Positions 31,512-37,768 of a DNA stretch of 64,000 nucleotides are shown one piece after another. The stretch comes from Clostridia bacterium. GTDB lineage: Bacteria; Bacillota; Clostridia; Oscillospirales; CAG-272. The first letter of the stretch is position 1. Every line of letters begins with the position of its first letter. The notes under the pieces are model-generated. The model saw nothing but the letters and a program-made list of their open reading frames with translations. It did no database searches and had not been told where the DNA came from. The stretch lies in contig JAFXKD010000005.1 of NCBI GenBank assembly GCA_017531925.1, positions 10,817 through 74,816 on the forward strand. Direction: 5' to 3'. Made by a program: the position numbers and the translations under genes.

Positions 31512-31895
31512 ATGAAAAAGACAATTAAACTCGTTGCAGTAGTAATGGTTATTGCTATGCTCGCTCTTTCACTCGTTGCTTGCGGAAAGTCCCTTAGCGG
31601 CAAATACACCGCAGAGGCAAACTGGGGTCTCGGTCAGACAACCTACACATACGACTTTACAATGGGTGGCAAGGTTACAAGAACAACAACTACAGATACT
31701 CTCTTTGGCGATCCTGAAACAAAGACTGCTGAAGGTAAGTACGAGATAATGGAAGACAATGAAAACCCCGATAAGTATGTTATCGCATTTGAGTTCCCCG
31801 AGGAAGACAGAGTTACTTATTCCTACTCCGAGGGTAACATTGACGGTGAAAAGGTTATCATCATCAACGGCACAACATTTACAAAGGTAAAATAA
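31512..31895 (+). CDS. Small lipoprotein of unknown function
   Basis: AAGGAGA SD. Signal peptide with lipobox SLVAC. Confidence 0.75.
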   Translation: MKKTIKLVAVVMVIAMLALSLVACGKSLSGKYTAEANWGLGQTTYTYDFTMGGKVTRTTTTDTLFGDPETKTAEGKYEIMEDNENPDKYVIAFEFPEEDRVTYSYSEGNIDGEKVIIINGTTFTKVK

Positions 31896-31905
31896 TTCAA
31901 TTATT

Positions 31906-31940
31906 AAAAATCCGAGAGGCAATTGCCTCTCGGTTTTTTT
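31906..31940. terminator. Strong bidirectional terminator shared by the lipoprotein gene and the metY-metA-TIR-membrane protein transcription unit
   Basis: ccgagaggc / gcctctcgg is a perfect 9-bp stem with aatt loop. It is flanked by AAAAAT and TTTTTTT. Confidence 0.85.
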
Positions 31941-34116
31941 ATTGCTTTTCAATTATTTCGTATCCGTTTGAGGTGAGGAGCCAGTATGCGTCGTCAAGTA
32001 TCTGATAATCGTATTTGATAACGTCCGTATCGAGCATACTCACTCCGTCGCGCTCTGCTACCATCCTTGCAAATTCCTCAAGTCCCTCAAACGTTGTGAT
32101 ATTTCCGTGTCTGCGAACGGAGTACATCTTTCCGTTCGTATATCTCTTTTTGTCATCGGTGCGCTCATTAAGTATCTGATCCTTAGTGGACGGCACCATT
32201 CCCTTGCTGAGCATAAAGGAGTTCCATCTGTGATGCTCAAGCACCGCCATATTTCTTCTGCGCGATATTGGGAAATCCAATGAATAACGCGCAACGGGCT
32301 TGCCCGTAATGCTGCAATCCTCAAAGCTCGGCATATCACCCGCTCCGTAAAGGGAAAGGTATTGCTCCCTTGTGAGAGGCTTTACTCCCTGTATTCCCTT
32401 TTCGCAGTAATCAAGCCCCATAAGGTGAAGCTTGGAGCGAAGGCTCAGGCAACAATAAATATTTGATTCCCTTTCGAGCAGGGATTTTTTTACGTACCAA
32501 TTCTTATCCGATGCTTTCTTGCATCCTTCAACGAAGGCTGCATCGATATTTGCGCCCTTTGAATGACTTATCTCATATTCAAGATCGTATATCTCGTTTC
32601 TCTTGCGAGCCATATCGGATATTTTGTCGTTAACTATTTTATCTATATTATAGACGACCTCTTTTTCGTTTCCAATAAATATGCAGCTCTCTGCATCAAG
32701 CGGTATCTGCTTATCCGTGTGATCGCTTGCCTTTACGAATACCGTAAGAGCGCCTTCATCCCATTCCTTGCTCTTCCCGGATAGCTTTGCGGCAATATCG
32801 ATATTTTCAAGATCGTCTCTTACAGCAACCACGGCAATATTCACCGCGTTCCTGCTTGATCTCAACGTCTCTCTTACCGCACTGTAAAAATCGGGCGAGT
32901 TATAATCAAGACAATAGTATCTCTCAATTGCGGGCGCGCTTGGAAGCGGCAGATATTCTGAGCTGTCGGCATTTATAAATTCATTTTCAAATCTGTAATA
33001 GCCGTGATTGAGCATCTTGCTCATTTTAGGATCTTCCTTATCAAAAATGTGATAAGTGATCTGCTTTGGCTCAGGTCTCTCAGACGTTCCGCAGAGCAGC
33101 TGATTATTTGCAATAGAGGTAAGGAAGATCTGCCTGTTTGTCCTTCCAAAGCCTACAAGGAACACGTTGATATCAACGTCATCATTTACAAGAGAGGTTG
33201 AATGATCGACCTGCTCCTTCGTCAAGAAGCGGCTTATCGGATATTTATCAACAAAGTCTATTGCCACCATTCTGTGCTTGCTGAGATAGTGCATACATCC
33301 GTAGCCCCTTTTTATAATATCCTCGTATATGCTTTCGTATTCCGTGTCACCGAAAGCGTAAATATCAAGACGGGAGAAAAGCTCCTCGCGCTGTGCGTCG
33401 TTCAGTGCTGCAAGCTCACACGCAAAGCTATTGCAGATCGCAATATTTTTATCGTCATCACCGGTATTTATCACCGCAATTCCGCTGCACTTCTTCTTAA
33501 GGACATCCTTAATAAGCTTTGCGGCAAATTTTTCGGGTGCGGACGTGGGGGCGTATCTGATATTGTTTAGATACAGCTCCTCTCTTTGCTTGCTGCCAAT
33601 ATCGTCCACGAGAATTTTAAAGCGTTTTTTATCGCTATTATAGATATTTACGCTCTGTCCGTTTGCTCCGAAAATATAGAGCTTATCCTTTTTGGTGACG
33701 TTTCCGATAAATCTCTGATATCTCTCCCAAAGATGCTGGTTGAATATCGATACCGCAAACATAAAGGCGTTTACGGTCACCACTATAAAGCAGAGATAGA
33801 CCGTTAATCGGAAAAGGTAGCTATCGTTCATAAGAAGCTTTATTCCGTCAGTTTCGTATTCGAGAGTCACAAGTGCTTTGATCTCGTTTACCGTGCTGAA
33901 GAACGCTTCTAAAATACCCTCGCCCACATAGGTATGCGCTACGTAATAGAGCGGAAAGGCGGTCGCGTAAATTATTGCAAACTTACCCTTTTTAAAGCCC
34001 CTTATGAAGGATATTCTGTCACCTCTGCCGGAAAAGGCAATTGCTGCGACGGATGCAGCTATCTCCAATATGATCAGTATAAGGCACGCAAGCGTTACTG
34101 CATTTACTAACAGCAT
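31939..34116 (-). CDS. 725-aa membrane protein: three N-terminal TM helices, two Rossmann-like (KTN/TrkA-N-like) modules, and two C-terminal RyR-like repeats
   Basis: ATG at 34116 follows GGAGGAAG. Hydrophobic helices at about aa 4-27, 44-62 and 100-125. Beta-alpha-beta starts KLYIFGANGQSV (aa 145) and INVFLVGFGRTNRQ (aa 316). W540..LERESN..LRSKLHLMGL and LEHHRWNSFMLSKGM...RRHGNITTFEGLEEF resemble bacterial RyR-domain motifs as I remember them. Confidence 0.85.
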   Translation of the reverse strand: MLLVNAVTLACLILIILEIAASVAAIAFSGRGDRISFIRGFKKGKFAIIYATAFPLYYVAHTYVGEGILEAFFSTVNEIKALVTLEYETDGIKLLMNDSYLFRLTVYLCFIVVTVNAFMFAVSIFNQHLWERYQRFIGNVTKKDKLYIFGANGQSVNIYNSDKKRFKILVDDIGSKQREELYLNNIRYAPTSAPEKFAAKLIKDVLKKKCSGIAVINTGDDDKNIAICNSFACELAALNDAQREELFSRLDIYAFGDTEYESIYEDIIKRGYGCMHYLSKHRMVAIDFVDKYPISRFLTKEQVDHSTSLVNDDVDINVFLVGFGRTNRQIFLTSIANNQLLCGTSERPEPKQITYHIFDKEDPKMSKMLNHGYYRFENEFINADSSEYLPLPSAPAIERYYCLDYNSPDFYSAVRETLRSSRNAVNIAVVAVRDDLENIDIAAKLSGKSKEWDEGALTVFVKASDHTDKQIPLDAESCIFIGNEKEVVYNIDKIVNDKISDMARKRNEIYDLEYEISHSKGANIDAAFVEGCKKASDKNWYVKKSLLERESNIYCCLSLRSKLHLMGLDYCEKGIQGVKPLTREQYLSLYGAGDMPSFEDCSITGKPVARYSLDFPISRRRNMAVLEHHRWNSFMLSKGMVPSTKDQILNERTDDKKRYTNGKMYSVRRHGNITTFEGLEEFARMVAERDGVSMLDTDVIKYDYQILDDAYWLLTSNGYEIIEKQ

Positions 34117-34128
34117 AAGACTTCCTCC

Positions 34129-35484
34129 CTATTTCTTTTGCGCTATTCCGACGAAATCTATCTCGCAATACCAGAAATTATCCTCTGAAAACTTATTTTC
34201 AAGACATTCGAGAGCATAATCCATAAGCTCAAGATTATTTCTGCTCTCCATATTGTGAGGATTTCTGTCATATATCTGCTTAAGATAATTTCTCCTGTAA
34301 GCAAATCTCTCCTCAAAGATATCCGCTCTCTCATCTATGTTAAGGCCGGATATCTCCTTTATGTAGTTCATCATTTTTACATTTTTATATCCCGAGCCGA
34401 GAAGCTGGGAGTATATCTTTCGTCCGTTAAAGCGGTCGGATATTCCCTCGGTCGAGGTATGAAGATCTATTATCTTCTGAACGAGTCCGTCATCGTTTAC
34501 GGCAATCGTAGAGCCGTCATCCGAGCCGCGGATGATTATATATCCGTCACGGGAGAGGAATTTTCTTATCCTCTTCAAGAACTTATTGGGGTTCGTCAGG
34601 TGGTGGATAACAAGGGACGCAAAGATTATATCGAAGCACTCGATATCGTACTTTTCCATCAGCGCGGTAAGATTATCCTCGAGGTTTTCGTCCTCAAGGT
34701 TCAGCTGCTCGTATGCAAAGTTTTCAGGGCAGTTCTTTTCCCTTGCGTATTCAAGGCATTTTTCGTTAAAATCGACGCCAAGAACGAACGAATCGGGGAT
34801 ATTCTCAAATCTGTCCTTAGTTACATAGCCGTATGCACATCCCGCGTCAAGGATCTTGATATTATCCTTTTTGATCCTTTCAAGCACGTATTCGATAGCG
34901 GGCATATCCGCAGCTCTCGTATTCTGTGACTGAATCTTAAGTCGCGTAAACTCCCTGCCGTAATTTGCCTTATAGGTCGAAGCGGTCTTGCCTGTCGATA
35001 AGGACCTTTTATACGTACGCTCCTCGCTGTGCGCGCTGTTGTTTTTCAAACAGTTTGCGGCAAACTGCGTTACCGTGCTTACGGGGGTGGAATTGTAGTC
35101 AAATATCTCGTATCCGCGAAGACTTCTCGGTACCTCGGACGAAGTGCTGTTCACGATATAAGGAATGATGCAGGCATTTTTCTTTCTGCCCGAAAGTATG
35201 TCATCGTGGAAGGATTCCCTTTCATAGCTCAGCCATTCGGTATCAAGATATGCAAGGTCGCTTGCGATGATTATAAGAACTCTCGCCTCGTCAAGTGCCT
35301 GCTCAATGGATCTCTTGTACGTTGCCGCGCCAAGCTCAAGAAGCTTAACGTTGCTGTAAAAGGCAGAGATTCCCATCCTATTGAACTCCGAATACATCTG
35401 CTCCGCAACGCGGACATCCTCAGTCTGATTGCCGTCAAATCCGGAATTTTTGAAAGATATGAACACGTCGAAATGATTATCCAT
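34129..35484 (-). CDS. TIR domain - class I SAM-dependent methyltransferase fusion protein (451 aa)
   Basis: TIR region: DVFISF at aa 6, GISAFYS, ARVLIIIASD, and W84-LSY-E88 at the catalytic Glu position. MTase region: motif I ILDAGCAYG (aa 211-219), VLGVDFN, FDIIFASLVIHHL, LSRDGYIIIRG. ATG at 35484 follows GGAGG. Confidence 0.85.
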   Translation of the reverse strand: MDNHFDVFISFKNSGFDGNQTEDVRVAEQMYSEFNRMGISAFYSNVKLLELGAATYKRSIEQALDEARVLIIIASDLAYLDTEWLSYERESFHDDILSGRKKNACIIPYIVNSTSSEVPRSLRGYEIFDYNSTPVSTVTQFAANCLKNNSAHSEERTYKRSLSTGKTASTYKANYGREFTRLKIQSQNTRAADMPAIEYVLERIKKDNIKILDAGCAYGYVTKDRFENIPDSFVLGVDFNEKCLEYAREKNCPENFAYEQLNLEDENLEDNLTALMEKYDIECFDIIFASLVIHHLTNPNKFLKRIRKFLSRDGYIIIRGSDDGSTIAVNDDGLVQKIIDLHTSTEGISDRFNGRKIYSQLLGSGYKNVKMMNYIKEISGLNIDERADIFEERFAYRRNYLKQIYDRNPHNMESRNNLELMDYALECLENKFSEDNFWYCEIDFVGIAQKK

Positions 35485-35492
35485 AATTCCTC

Positions 35493-36404
35493 CTATATAA
35501 GTGAAATGTTATAGGGTGTTACCTGATAAACGTAGTAATTGAGCCAGTTTGAATATATGAGCGAGGTGGTGGAATACCAATTGGGGTTTATCTCGGTCAT
35601 AGTTTCATCCACAAAGTAGTTCTTGGGCGGATCGATAGGCAAGCCCTTTGCAACGTCGCGAAGATACTCCGTCTTAAGTGTTTCCTTGCTGTATTCAAGG
35701 TGTCCCATAAAGTATATCTGACGCCCGTCGCGCGAGCGAAGAATGGATGCTCCCACCTCGTCGCTTCTCGCAAGTGTTACAAGATCGTCGATCTTGGCAA
35801 TTTCATGCTCGCTTATCTCCGTATGGCGCGAGTGGGGGATGTTGATATACTTATCCGTTCCCTTCAGTAGCGGATCGTAACGCATAACCTTTTCGTGCGG
35901 AAATATTCCGAAAACCTTTTTGGGAAGCTCCGTTTTCTGCAAGCCGTAATAGTAATGAAGAGCCGCTTGTGCTCCCCAGCAAATGAACACGGTGCTTTGC
36001 ACGTTGGTGCGCGCAAAATCCATAATTTTTGTAAGCTCCTCCCAATATTTGACCTCCTCGAACGGTATCGTTTCAACGGGCGCGCCCGTGATTATCATTC
36101 CGTCGAAGCGGCGGTCCTTTATCTCGCCGAAGGTCTTATAAAACCTGTCAAGATGATGCTCCGGCGTGTGAGTGCCCGTATAGGACTCGGTGGCAAGGAG
36201 CGTCACCCTTATCTGAAGCGGTGAATTTGAGAGCATACGGATAAGCTGAGTTTCCGTTTCCACCTTCGTTGGCATAAGATTGAGGATCGCTATCTCAATG
36301 GGTCTTATGTCCTGACGAAGCGCACGCTGCTCGTTCATCACGAATATATTCTCGCTTTTCAGAGTGGAATATGCAGGCATTTCCTGCGGAATTATAATTG
36401 GCAT
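35493..36404 (-). CDS. metA: Homoserine O-acyltransferase (MetA family; acetyl or succinyl specificity not assignable)
   Basis: N-terminal MPIIIPQEMPA...IRPIEIAILNLMPTK. ICWGAQAAL active-site Cys region. C-terminal NWLNYYVYQVTPY. Confidence 0.93.
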   Translation of the reverse strand: MPIIIPQEMPAYSTLKSENIFVMNEQRALRQDIRPIEIAILNLMPTKVETETQLIRMLSNSPLQIRVTLLATESYTGTHTPEHHLDRFYKTFGEIKDRRFDGMIITGAPVETIPFEEVKYWEELTKIMDFARTNVQSTVFICWGAQAALHYYYGLQKTELPKKVFGIFPHEKVMRYDPLLKGTDKYINIPHSRHTEISEHEIAKIDDLVTLARSDEVGASILRSRDGRQIYFMGHLEYSKETLKTEYLRDVAKGLPIDPPKNYFVDETMTEINPNWYSTTSLIYSNWLNYYVYQVTPYNISLI

Positions 36405-36421: not shown

Positions 36422-37696
36422 TCAAATTTGTGAAAGCGCACCGTCAAGGTCTGCAATAATATCATCGATATTCTCAATGCCGACCGAAAGACGAATGAGA
36501 TTATCGGCAATTCCGATATTCTCAAGATCCGCAGCGGATAACTGACGGTGAGTGGTGGATGCGGGGTGGAGCACGCAGGAGCGCACGTCCGCTACGTGAG
36601 TTACTATGGCGATCATTTTAAGTCCCTCCATAACGACCGTTGCGGCTTCCGAGCCTCCCTTTACGCCAAAGCTGAGCATACCGCCCTGTCCGTTAGGCAT
36701 ATATTTTTTTGCAAGCGAATGATACTTGTCGCTCTCAAGCGAGCCGTATTTTACCCACTCGACCTTGGGATGTTGTGCAAGATACTCCGCTACTCTCTCC
36801 GCATTTCTTGAATGTCTTTCCATACGGAGCGCGAGAGTTTCCATACCGAGATTGGTAAGGAATGCGTTTTCGGGGCTCATTATAGCACCGAGATCGCGCA
36901 TCATCTGAACGCGGCATTTTGTTCCGAACGCCTTTTCGCCAAGCGTTGAATACACAAGTCCGTGGTAGCTATCGTCGGGAATATTGAATTCGGGATATCT
37001 GTCAGATATGGCAAAATCGAAGTTTCCGCAGTCAACGATCGCTCCGCCAAGGGCTACGGCGTGTCCGTCAAGATATTTTGAGCTTGAATAAAGGATCACG
37101 TTTGCACCGAAATCACGGGGCTTGCACAAAACGGGAGTTACAAGGGTGTTATCCACCATAAAGAGAATGCCGTGCTTATTGGCAAGTCCTGCAAGCTTAT
37201 CGAAATCAAGCACCACTATGGTGGGGTTGGCTACCGTTTCGGCAAAGATGATCTTTGTATTTTTATCGATGAGCTTTTCGATATTCTCCGCGCTGTCGTC
37301 GGGGTCGAAGAAGCGCGTTTCTATGCCGTATTTTTTAAGTGTTACGGAGAAAAGATTGTACGTGCCTCCGTAAACCGCGGACGATGAAACGATATTGTCA
37401 CCCGCGTTACTAACGTTGAGAACCGCGAGCATTGTCGCGCTCATACCGGATGCGCAAGCGATCGCACCCGTGCCTCCGTCAAGCATTGAGAGCTTTTCCT
37501 CAAAGGCATTAACGGTGGGGTTGCCTATTCTGGAATAAAAATATCCGTCAGATTTGAGATCGAAAAGGTCTGCCATAGGCTGAGCCTTTTCATAGTAAAA
37601 AGTTGTGCTTTTAACAACGGGGCAAACTCTTGCCTCTCCGCTTTTGGGACTGTACGCTCCCTGCACGCAAACAGTATCAAGCTTTTTGTTTTTCAT
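36422..37696 (-). CDS. metY: O-acetylhomoserine aminocarboxypropyltransferase/sulfhydrylase (PLP-dependent, Cys/Met metabolism family)
   Basis: Motifs YSRIGNPT and SSSKYLDGH (PLP lysine), plus the C-terminal LIRLSVGIE. Confidence 0.92.
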   Translation of the reverse strand: MKNKKLDTVCVQGAYSPKSGEARVCPVVKSTTFYYEKAQPMADLFDLKSDGYFYSRIGNPTVNAFEEKLSMLDGGTGAIACASGMSATMLAVLNVSNAGDNIVSSSAVYGGTYNLFSVTLKKYGIETRFFDPDDSAENIEKLIDKNTKIIFAETVANPTIVVLDFDKLAGLANKHGILFMVDNTLVTPVLCKPRDFGANVILYSSSKYLDGHAVALGGAIVDCGNFDFAISDRYPEFNIPDDSYHGLVYSTLGEKAFGTKCRVQMMRDLGAIMSPENAFLTNLGMETLALRMERHSRNAERVAEYLAQHPKVEWVKYGSLESDKYHSLAKKYMPNGQGGMLSFGVKGGSEAATVVMEGLKMIAIVTHVADVRSCVLHPASTTHRQLSAADLENIGIADNLIRLSVGIENIDDIIADLDGALSQI

Positions 37697-37739: not shown

Positions 37740-37768
37740 ATTATAACACAGATTCTGAGAGTTGTCAA
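37740..37768 (-). promoter_or_regulatory. Consensus sigma-A promoter of metY
   Basis: Minus strand reads TTGACA (37768-37763), a 17-nt spacer, then TATAAT (37745-37740). This leaves a leader of only about 36 nt. Confidence 0.65.

Follow-up and report, generated by a model that had tools for sequence, protein, structure and literature searches.

A TIR-methyltransferase gene and an adjoining membrane protein gene with RCK-like and divergent RyR/R12-like regions: a facultative, possibly signalling pair in a Clostridia bacterium

We analyzed a stretch of 64,000 nucleotides (nt) from a gut Clostridia bacterium (GenBank assembly GCA_017531925.1, contig JAFXKD010000005.1, positions 10,817 to 74,816; hereafter the window), in which two adjacent minus-strand genes encode a fusion of a TIR domain with an S-adenosylmethionine (SAM) methyltransferase (gene 1) and a membrane-anchored protein with two Rossmann modules and a two-repeat C-terminal domain (gene 2). 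The identities of these domains, the residues conserved in each family, and a co-location that recurs in other genomes while being optional characterize the pair, which is a plausible candidate for a signalling or defence module based on nicotinamide adenine dinucleotide (NAD). We tentatively favour, at somewhat less than an even chance, the view that the two genes form a facultative Thoeris-like signalling pair, in which the product of the TIR domain would be read by an RyR-type membrane effector.

Two adjacent genes and their domains

The pair and its parts are listed below.

34129..35484, minus strand (35484->34129): gene 1, TIR-SAM methyltransferase fusion, 451 amino acids (aa); open reading frame (ORF) and Pfam
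35092..35466, minus strand: TIR domain of gene 1, residues 7-131, with W84-x3-E88; Pfam TIR_2 (PF13676)
34378..34896, minus strand: gene 1 class I SAM-methyltransferase core (residues 197-369; motif I, ILDAGCAYG); Pfam
34117..34128, minus strand: 12-nt spacer GGAGGAAGTCTT between the genes, holding the gene 2 ribosome-binding site GGAGGAAG; sequence
31939..34116, minus strand (34116->31939): gene 2, membrane protein, 725 aa; ORF and AlphaFold2 model
33697..34116, minus strand: N-terminal membrane region of gene 2, residues 1-140; hydrophobicity and model helices
32674..33684, minus strand: tandem Rossmann/RCK-like modules of gene 2, residues 145-300 and 316-481; Foldseek and signature
31942..32625, minus strand: two-repeat RyR/R12-like domain of gene 2, residues 498-725; fold, profile, and motif evidence

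Both ORFs, 451 and 725 aa long and 12 nt apart, have the coordinates given in an initial annotation of this DNA, which also placed the gene 2 Shine-Dalgarno sequence at the gene 1 stop codon; on direct reading, the GGAGG of the ribosome-binding site abuts the TAG of gene 1.

The same annotation described gene 1 as a TIR domain with a glutamate at the catalytic position, joined to an intact SAM-methyltransferase, and this description holds, with both domains passing Pfam cutoffs. Residues 7-131 match TIR_2 (PF13676) at 30.8 bits against a curated cutoff of 28, and PF13676 is also present in most gene 1 homologues. In an alignment of 31 family members, W84 and E88 of the WxxxE motif are invariant. 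The glutamate of this motif is the catalytic residue of NAD-cleaving TIR domains (SARM1, AbTir, and ThsB), which suggests that the gene 1 TIR is of the putative NAD-cleaving type, with E88 as its predicted catalytic residue. Residues 197-369 match Methyltransf_31, 12, 11, 25, and 23 (E from 4e-18 to 9e-9), the first of these at 65.8 bits against a cutoff of 27, and D213 and G215-G219 of SAM motif I are invariant in the same 31 members. Invariant positions in the C-terminal lid (S349, D350, R351, N353, G354, R355, K356, R393, and R397) include several basic or polar residues, a composition that would be compatible with an anionic small substrate. The nearest solved structures and NCBIfam models of the methyltransferase include BioC, UbiG, LahSB, ToxA, and juvenile-hormone acid methyltransferase; by these matches, several of its nearest relatives are small-molecule O-/N-methyltransferases and not DNA methyltransferases. 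The sole PADLOC match of gene 1 is a weak one, of the methyltransferase part to mad2. The family comprises more than 320 clusters at 90% identity, nearly all of them close to 451 aa long and sharing the two-domain layout, and these clusters come from metagenome bins of Clostridia and Bacilli.

Gene 2 has no match in Pfam (E<=1), NCBIfam, PADLOC, or PDB sequences, and a relaxed Pfam scan (E<=10) of 35 family members finds neither RyR (PF02026) nor TrkA_N; searching PDB sequences with the protein alone or with a profile of its C-terminus returns only chance matches to radixin. Drawing on 35 homologues, AlphaFold2 gives a confident model (predicted local distance difference test, pLDDT, 87.7; predicted template-modelling score, pTM, 0.83) that consists of N-terminal helices, two beta/alpha modules, a helical segment, and a C-terminal alpha/beta part with two repeats. 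The family forms 800 clusters at 50% identity among 1.84 billion representatives. Relatives were found in 156 species genomes, and 80 loci were examined; numbers with the prefix L (e.g. L049 and L093) are labels of homologue loci compared with the window.

Gene 2 was initially annotated with three N-terminal transmembrane helices and two Rossmann-type modules, and the AlphaFold2 model and the Foldseek matches agree with a membrane anchor and two such modules. The number of helices is less certain. Strong hydrophobicity is confined to two segments (residues 1-32 and 100-127), while the model has helices at 2-28, 46-63, 68-83, and 100-140, so that one or two further helices may be membrane-embedded too. 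Direct reading of residues 1-140 finds no K+ selectivity filter (TVGYG-like), and the loop VGEG (64-67) is not conserved in the family consensus; a canonical K+ channel of the GsuK/MthK type is ruled out by the missing filter.

The middle region of gene 2 is, according to the model, a tandem RCK/TrkA-like Rossmann core. Its Foldseek matches in the PDB to tandem-RCK structures range from E 1.6e-6 to 1e-4, with low query-normalised template-modelling (TM) scores of 0.25-0.29. The gating ring of TrkA (4j9v/4g65) is matched at E 1.6e-6. Matches to GsuK, a channel that binds NAD and ADP, start at E 2e-5 (4gx0/4gx2), with the NAD-bound 4gx2 at E 1.2e-4. In the second module, G322-F-G324-K-T-N327 is well kept among the 35 homologues (G322 in 34, G324 in all, and N327 in 28), and D359 at the end of beta-2 is invariant; together, G322, G324, N327, and D359 read as a dinucleotide-binding-type signature. 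The first module is atypical and has no canonical glycine-rich loop. Gene 2 thus resembles the RCK/KTN rings of TrkA and of GsuK, which has two RCK domains per subunit, in following its N-terminal membrane domain with two Rossmann-type modules in a row, in having these rings as its best structural matches, and in the GxGxxN motif and acidic beta-2 residue of its second module. It differs from them in its noncanonical first module, its low TM-scores, and the lack of a Pfam TrkA_N match and of a K+ filter.

For the C-terminal domain, the relevant precedent is a 2026 preprint, concerned solely with viral RyR-domain proteins, in which RyR/R12 domains bind or cleave the isomers of cyclic ADP-ribose termed 2'cADPR and 3'cADPR (PMC13232231). 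The phage RyR-domain protein RyDEP binds both and hydrolyses them to ADP-ribose (ADPR), and among the RyDEP homologues tested that have conserved residues, most bind the signal without cleaving it (PMC13232231). We retrieved the RyDEP sequence (DyoEdafos gp78, MN234187.1) and confirmed its residue numbering. In a joint MAFFT alignment, the RyDEP residues correspond to gene 2 as follows.

RyDEP H75, part of the catalytic dyad, contacts the terminal ribose: gene 2 H628
RyDEP W78, stacks on the adenine base: gene 2 W631
RyDEP H100, coordinates the phosphates: gene 2 H670
RyDEP K116-D117, with D117 the acid of the catalytic dyad: gene 2 R689-D690

H628, W631, and H670 are invariant in the 35 gene 2 homologues, and R689-D690 is invariant in a 15-sequence alignment of the family's C-terminus. 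All of these candidate ligand residues sit in repeat 2; in repeat 1, the His and Trp positions are occupied by N507 and Y510. The divergent gene 2 relative of L093 (5443-7455) has a Lys at the position of the catalytic H75 (EKLRW vs EHxRW) and retains the Trp and the downstream His.

Fold and profile comparisons point in the same direction. When residues 490-725 are modelled alone (pLDDT 82.9), the top 16 PDB matches in Foldseek are all RyR Repeat12 domains spanning both repeats, led by human RyR3 R12 with dantrolene and ADP bound, with scores that are weak and non-significant (best E 0.057, probability 0.82, TM 0.35-0.39). The model has no match in a viral structure library (Foldseek), and a tblastn search of phage genomes with repeat 2 finds nothing. 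The commonest neighbour of gene 2 homologues, family A5 (620-800 aa), is a distant paralogue of gene 2 and provides a transitive link, which is indirect but stronger than the fold matches: the two families align over residues 9-485, the membrane and Rossmann region, with 98.8% probability and E 6e-17 (hhalign), the A5 C-terminus has a weak Pfam RyR match, the second repeat of gene 2 aligns with this Pfam-RyR region at 90% probability and E 1.5e-6, and A5 in turn aligns with RyDEP at 88% probability. Direct hhalign comparisons of the gene 2 C-terminus with RyDEP, and with a second neighbouring family, A6, are not significant. Because of the former result, we call the domain "divergent RyR/R12-like", outside Pfam membership; the label is supported by the motif and by transitive homology, with weak evidence from fold. 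The RyR-like repeats of the initial annotation therefore stand at the level of profile, motif, and weak fold similarity and fail at the level of Pfam. Its proposal that the membrane protein might read an NAD-derived nucleotide is strengthened by the preprint and by the four ligand residues kept in gene 2 (PMC13232231).

Both neighbouring families carry RyR domains of their own. A5 combines a transmembrane part, a Rossmann region, and a single C-terminal RyR (motif EYEHRRW...KTH...KD), and it lies directly upstream of the gene 2 relative, as a same-strand tandem, in 10 loci (L005, L025, L027, L029, L042, L044, L046, L049, L053, and L061), with 5 more loci having it nearby (15 in all); the tandem may point to hetero-oligomers. 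A6, which adjoins the gene 2 relative in 6 loci (L016, L026, L027, L039, L068, and L069), has an HD-like N-terminus, a bona fide RyR domain that aligns with RyDEP at 82% probability (hhalign), and a conserved C-terminal region (TIAGTGHR...) that has no Pfam match.

The same residues and neighbours could be read in another way, with gene 2 as a signal-terminating or self-protecting enzyme that clears TIR-made nucleotides and thereby sets a threshold or switches off the response, or, in a variant, couples nucleotide breakdown to another output. The invariant counterparts of the RyDEP dyad H75/D117 and of the binding residues W78/H100 agree with such an enzyme, and the frequent RyR-domain neighbours (A5 in 15 loci and the HD-RyR family A6 in 6) suggest a nucleotide-processing neighbourhood. 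Conserved residues are, however, no proof of catalysis, because most tested RyDEP homologues bind without cleaving; it is not evident why a hydrolase should need a membrane domain together with a tandem RCK core, and the L093 homologue has replaced the catalytic His. We regard both the enzyme and its variant as distinctly unlikely.

Linkage of the two families in other genomes

TIR genes recur beside gene 2 relatives. A narrow gene 1 profile under-counts TIR neighbours, detecting gene 1-like ones only in L043, L049, and L065 of the 80 loci, so the counts given here come from an iterated TIR profile checked against Pfam. With this profile, 18 TIR ORFs lie within 10 kb of gene 2 relatives, in 12 of the 80 species loci, and all of those spot-checked exceed the TIR_2 cutoff. 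They account for 17 of 665 neighbours within +-5 genes vs 1 of 338 further out (Fisher p 0.006), a p value that is optimistic because the counts are non-independent, TIR genes being clustered with three in L039 and four in L059. The TIR partners are of several types: TIR-methyltransferase, TIR-GNAT, TIR-LRR, TIR-HD, and TIR alone.

Three deeply diverged loci have a TIR-methyltransferase adjoining a gene 2 relative: the window, L049, and L093, each with its own gene order. In L049, where the gene 2 relative is 42% identical to that of the window, the order is TIR-methyltransferase, A5 paralogue, gene 2 relative. In L093, the order is reversed relative to the window, and the TIR-methyltransferase (32% identity to gene 1) directly follows a gene 2 relative with 23% identity. 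Other TIRs lie beside gene 2 relatives in L039, L043, L059, L065, and L071; for example, in L065 a gene 1-type TIR is directly upstream. Seen from the other side, 13 distinct contexts of the gene 1 family were examined, and a gene 2-type gene is present in two of them, the window and L093. Because both families are rare, the loci are deeply diverged, and the gene orders differ, it is very unlikely that the three co-locations arose by chance. The linkage of the two genes is real but facultative, and most members of both families are solitary.

Several of these loci have features of their own. L039 (=L001/L002; 7718-19209), from a Christensenella bin, is a TIR-rich island with the following genes in order.

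First part: HD-like/RyR protein, 751 aa (Pfam RyR above cutoff); gene 2 relative; TIR protein, 400 aa
Next: separate methyltransferase, 261 aa; DHQS_2nd-domain protein, 180 aa; TIR-GNAT, 450 aa; TIR-HD_3, ~991 aa

In L059 (3692-16844), from a Spirochaetia bin, four TIR ORFs flank the gene 2 relative, and two of the TIR proteins are giants of 1191 and 1147 aa with two TIR domains each. The gene 2 relative of L032 (8876-12145) has an in-frame N-terminal extension of ~366 aa, and in P0118 (1147 aa) the extension consists of iron-type alcohol dehydrogenase domains (PF13685, PF25137, and PF00465). The extension may be a true fusion with an NAD-dependent enzyme, or it may stem from faulty gene calling. 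Among gene 1 homologues, that of L108 has a 1365-aa LRR/TIR/NACHT-like protein next to it and a gene for a PemK toxin in the vicinity, and two lineages, L086/L087 (541-9365) and L107 (6216-9356), share the synteny lspA-rluD-gene 1 homologue.

Operon setting and points against a fixed pair

In the window, the gene pair ends a methionine-biosynthesis operon, following metY and metA. The surrounding features are given below.

37740..37768, minus strand: sigma-70-type promoter upstream of the metY-like gene (TTGACA-17-TATAAT, extended TG); 12/12 consensus match
36422..37696, minus strand: metY-like gene, O-acetylhomoserine sulfhydrylase-like, 424 aa; ORF, with a syntenic orthologue in L102 matching Pfam Cys_Met_Meta_PP
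35493..36404, minus strand: metA-like gene, homoserine O-acyltransferase-like, 303 aa; ORF, with a syntenic orthologue in L102 matching Pfam HTS
31912..31933, both strands: bidirectional intrinsic terminator, 9-bp stem with 7 G-C pairs and T-runs on either strand
31512-31895, plus strand: convergent lipoprotein gene, sharing the 31912..31933 terminator with gene 2
31933..34128, minus strand: segment missing from the closest relative, gene 2 with the 12-nt spacer; collinear alignment

The metY-like gene is operon context and stands outside the module of genes 1 and 2. The metA-like stop codon precedes the gene 1 start by 8 nt, and we found no terminator-like site of comparable strength between the promoter (37768) and 31933. 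Because of this short gap, the consensus promoter, and the lack of a comparable terminator in between, metY, metA, gene 1, and gene 2 are probably co-transcribed as a single transcript from the promoter at 37740..37768, with a 5' leader of only ~44 nt. The transcript would end at the bidirectional terminator, which had been predicted from the sequence and is present as a 9-bp stem at 31912-31933 with T-runs on both strands. Control of the operon by a SAM riboswitch or T-box was set aside, since Rfam matches no RNA family at all in the window, these two included, and the leader is so short.

Gene 1 could, in this setting, be a metabolic gene tied to the methionine/SAM operon, e.g. for metabolite methylation, with a TIR-like fold that processes nucleotides or nucleosides instead of serving as an immune NADase, and with gene 2 unrelated to it. 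Its start 8 nt past the metA-like stop, under a consensus promoter and with no terminator between, and the conserved order metY-metA-gene 1 in the nearest relative would fit such a role. Distant homologues, however, occur in unrelated contexts that have no met genes, Rfam finds no SAM riboswitch or T-box, and the invariant WxxxE is the signature of NAD-cleaving TIR domains; a metabolic role of this kind is very improbable.

The closest relatives, L102, L103, and L104, are collinear with the window from 37772 to 34129, and the alignment resumes at window 31932->31717, i.e. at the terminator and lipoprotein gene. Nucleotide identity to the window is 79% for L102 and L103 and 76% over gene 1 for the shorter L104; in the closest relative, gene 1 is 85% identical as protein and 79% at the nucleotide level. 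The indel is either a gain or a loss of gene 2. Insertion of gene 2 by a mobile element was set aside, as the junction sequences have no repeats at the indel borders, and genes 1 and 2, with a GC content of 0.44, lie just a little below their neighbours (0.48).

A number of findings, in addition to the optimistic enrichment p value above, weigh against a signalling pair. The closest relative has metY-metA-gene 1 intact and lacks gene 2 alone, as a clean indel; gene 1 is therefore maintained without gene 2, and the two-gene cassette that was first proposed is not an obligate one. The wider counts agree, as a gene 2-type gene is missing within 8-10 kb in 11 of the 13 contexts of the gene 1 family and 68 of the 80 gene 2-family loci (~85%) have no TIR gene within 10 kb. 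Of the linkage in other genomes that the initial annotation made a test of its reading, the recurrence in L049 and L093 and the enrichment of TIR genes remain, and a regular pairing does not. The location does not speak for defence either: the window locus, at the end of a methionine operon, is not a defence island, few neighbours of the homologues match defence models, and neither protein matches a PADLOC system model. In several Christensenellaceae, moreover, a gene 2 relative holds a stable place between rpsU and rpsT and has no TIR gene in its vicinity, a position that looks like that of a core gene rather than a defence gene. Finally, the RyR assignment of gene 2 is non-significant in Foldseek (best E 0.057), PF02026 is found neither in gene 2 (E<=1) nor in its 35 relatives (E<=10), and the C-terminus does not align significantly with RyDEP in hhalign.

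The Christensenellaceae stretch itself (L003, L004, L031, and others) reads prmA, radical-SAM gene, HIT, rpsU, a 135-aa ORF, gene 2, rpsT, mraZ; the 135-aa ORF, which has no known domain, always precedes the gene 2 relative in the rpsU/rpsT loci.

These observations also bear on a reading in which the two genes are independent neighbours, gene 1 being a stand-alone NADase-type defence or stress protein and gene 2 a nucleotide-regulated membrane protein that senses NAD(H), ADP/ATP, or ADPR for ion or membrane homeostasis, both placed where accessory genes accumulate, at an operon end. RCK domains (TrkA, KtrA, and GsuK) normally read ATP, ADP, or NAD(H), as this reading would have it. The precise single-gene indel against the nearest relative, the solitary majority of both families, the conserved housekeeping position of gene 2 relatives between rpsU and rpsT in several species, and the gene 1 relatives with a synteny of their own (lspA-rluD-gene 1 in L086 and L107) all speak for independence. 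Chance, however, is very unlikely to have brought a TIR-methyltransferase next to a gene 2 relative three independent times, at identities of 23-42% and with varying gene order, in families as rare as these (800 gene 2-type clusters in 1.84 billion; a few hundred of the gene 1 type), and several TIR architectures cluster no more than 5 genes to either side of gene 2 relatives. We consider independence, in this form, a real but doubtful possibility.

Proposed signalling role and relation to known systems

In the facultative Thoeris-like pair that we tentatively favour, gene 1 would be the signal generator: on some trigger, its TIR domain (E88) would turn NAD+ into an ADP-ribose-derived nucleotide. 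The fused methyltransferase might sense the trigger (e.g. SAM levels) or modify a small molecule, candidate substrates being the TIR product itself or the released nicotinamide, in which case it would act as a nicotinamide sink. Gene 2 would be both receptor and effector, its cytosolic RyR/R12-type pocket (H628, W631, H670, and D690) binding the TIR nucleotide and its tandem RCK-like modules, probably in an oligomeric ring as in TrkA and GsuK, relaying the change to the membrane domain, so that membrane permeability would shift and growth would stop. What we infer here comprises the ligand and the oligomeric state, any activity as a channel or in membrane damage, the part played by the methyltransferase, and any anti-phage function of the pair.

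A more specific version, which we hold to be unlikely, is that a host RyR/R12 pocket serves as the receptor for a TIR-made messenger of the ADP-ribose type and gates a membrane protein through an RCK-like ring. This would be, by analogy, a bacterial counterpart of the debated link between cADPR and the ryanodine receptor in animals, and the fused methyltransferase may then make a methylated messenger that phage sponges or glycosidases such as RyDEP do not recognize.

The closest functional parallel is with Thoeris (ThsB TIR sensor plus effector; types I-XI), which likewise sets a TIR with a Glu at the catalytic position beside a nucleotide-binding, membrane-spanning protein, the arrangement predicted for genes 1 and 2; TIR genes also recur beside the effector-like gene 2 family. 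Thoeris type X pairs a TIR with an ion-channel effector whose signal is still unknown, and offers a precedent for a channel serving as effector (10.64898/2025.12.03.692087). By contrast with Thoeris, gene 2 has a tandem RCK plus RyR/R12 architecture, the gene 1 TIR carries a fused SAM-methyltransferase, the two genes pair optionally and for the most part outside defence islands, and the pair is known here from sequence alone. The accessible part of the same 2025 catalogue, of 29 Thoeris types, makes no mention of RyR, TrkA/RCK, or methyltransferase (10.64898/2025.12.03.692087).

Gene 2 shares with RyDEP and PF02026 the invariant counterparts of H75, W78, H100, and D117, and with the RyR3 R12 domain its best, if weak, fold matches; the paralogues next to gene 2 relatives match PF02026 and RyDEP directly. 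Gene 2 itself matches neither directly, and its repeat 1 has N507 and Y510 where His and Trp would be expected. Moreover, RyDEP is a small, soluble, homodimeric phage counter-defence protein, whereas gene 2 is host-encoded, membrane-anchored, and fused to RCK-like modules. Gene 1, for its part, resembles the stand-alone bacterial TIR NADases and their fusions in its WxxxE motif, its TIR_2 match, and the solitary occurrence of most of its homologues, and differs from them in having an intact SAM-methyltransferase of the small-molecule type as its partner. The initial annotation knew of no system with this domain combination, and our literature search agrees, finding no bacterial effector that joins transmembrane, RCK, and RyR parts and no TIR-methyltransferase system.

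Binding or cleavage of TIR-made cADPR isomers by RyR-type domains was shown only in 2026, and only for small phage proteins (PMC13232231). If the signalling reading is true, the gene 2 family would be a new class of effector or regulator for TIR signalling and a tractable bacterial model of an R12 pocket that couples nucleotide binding to a membrane output, a coupling that is still open for animal ryanodine receptors and cADPR. The TIR-methyltransferase fusion, itself undescribed, may be a sign of SAM sensing or of modified signals derived from NAD. If the two genes are instead independent, the analysis defines two uncharacterised families of gut Clostridia, each with clear, testable residues.

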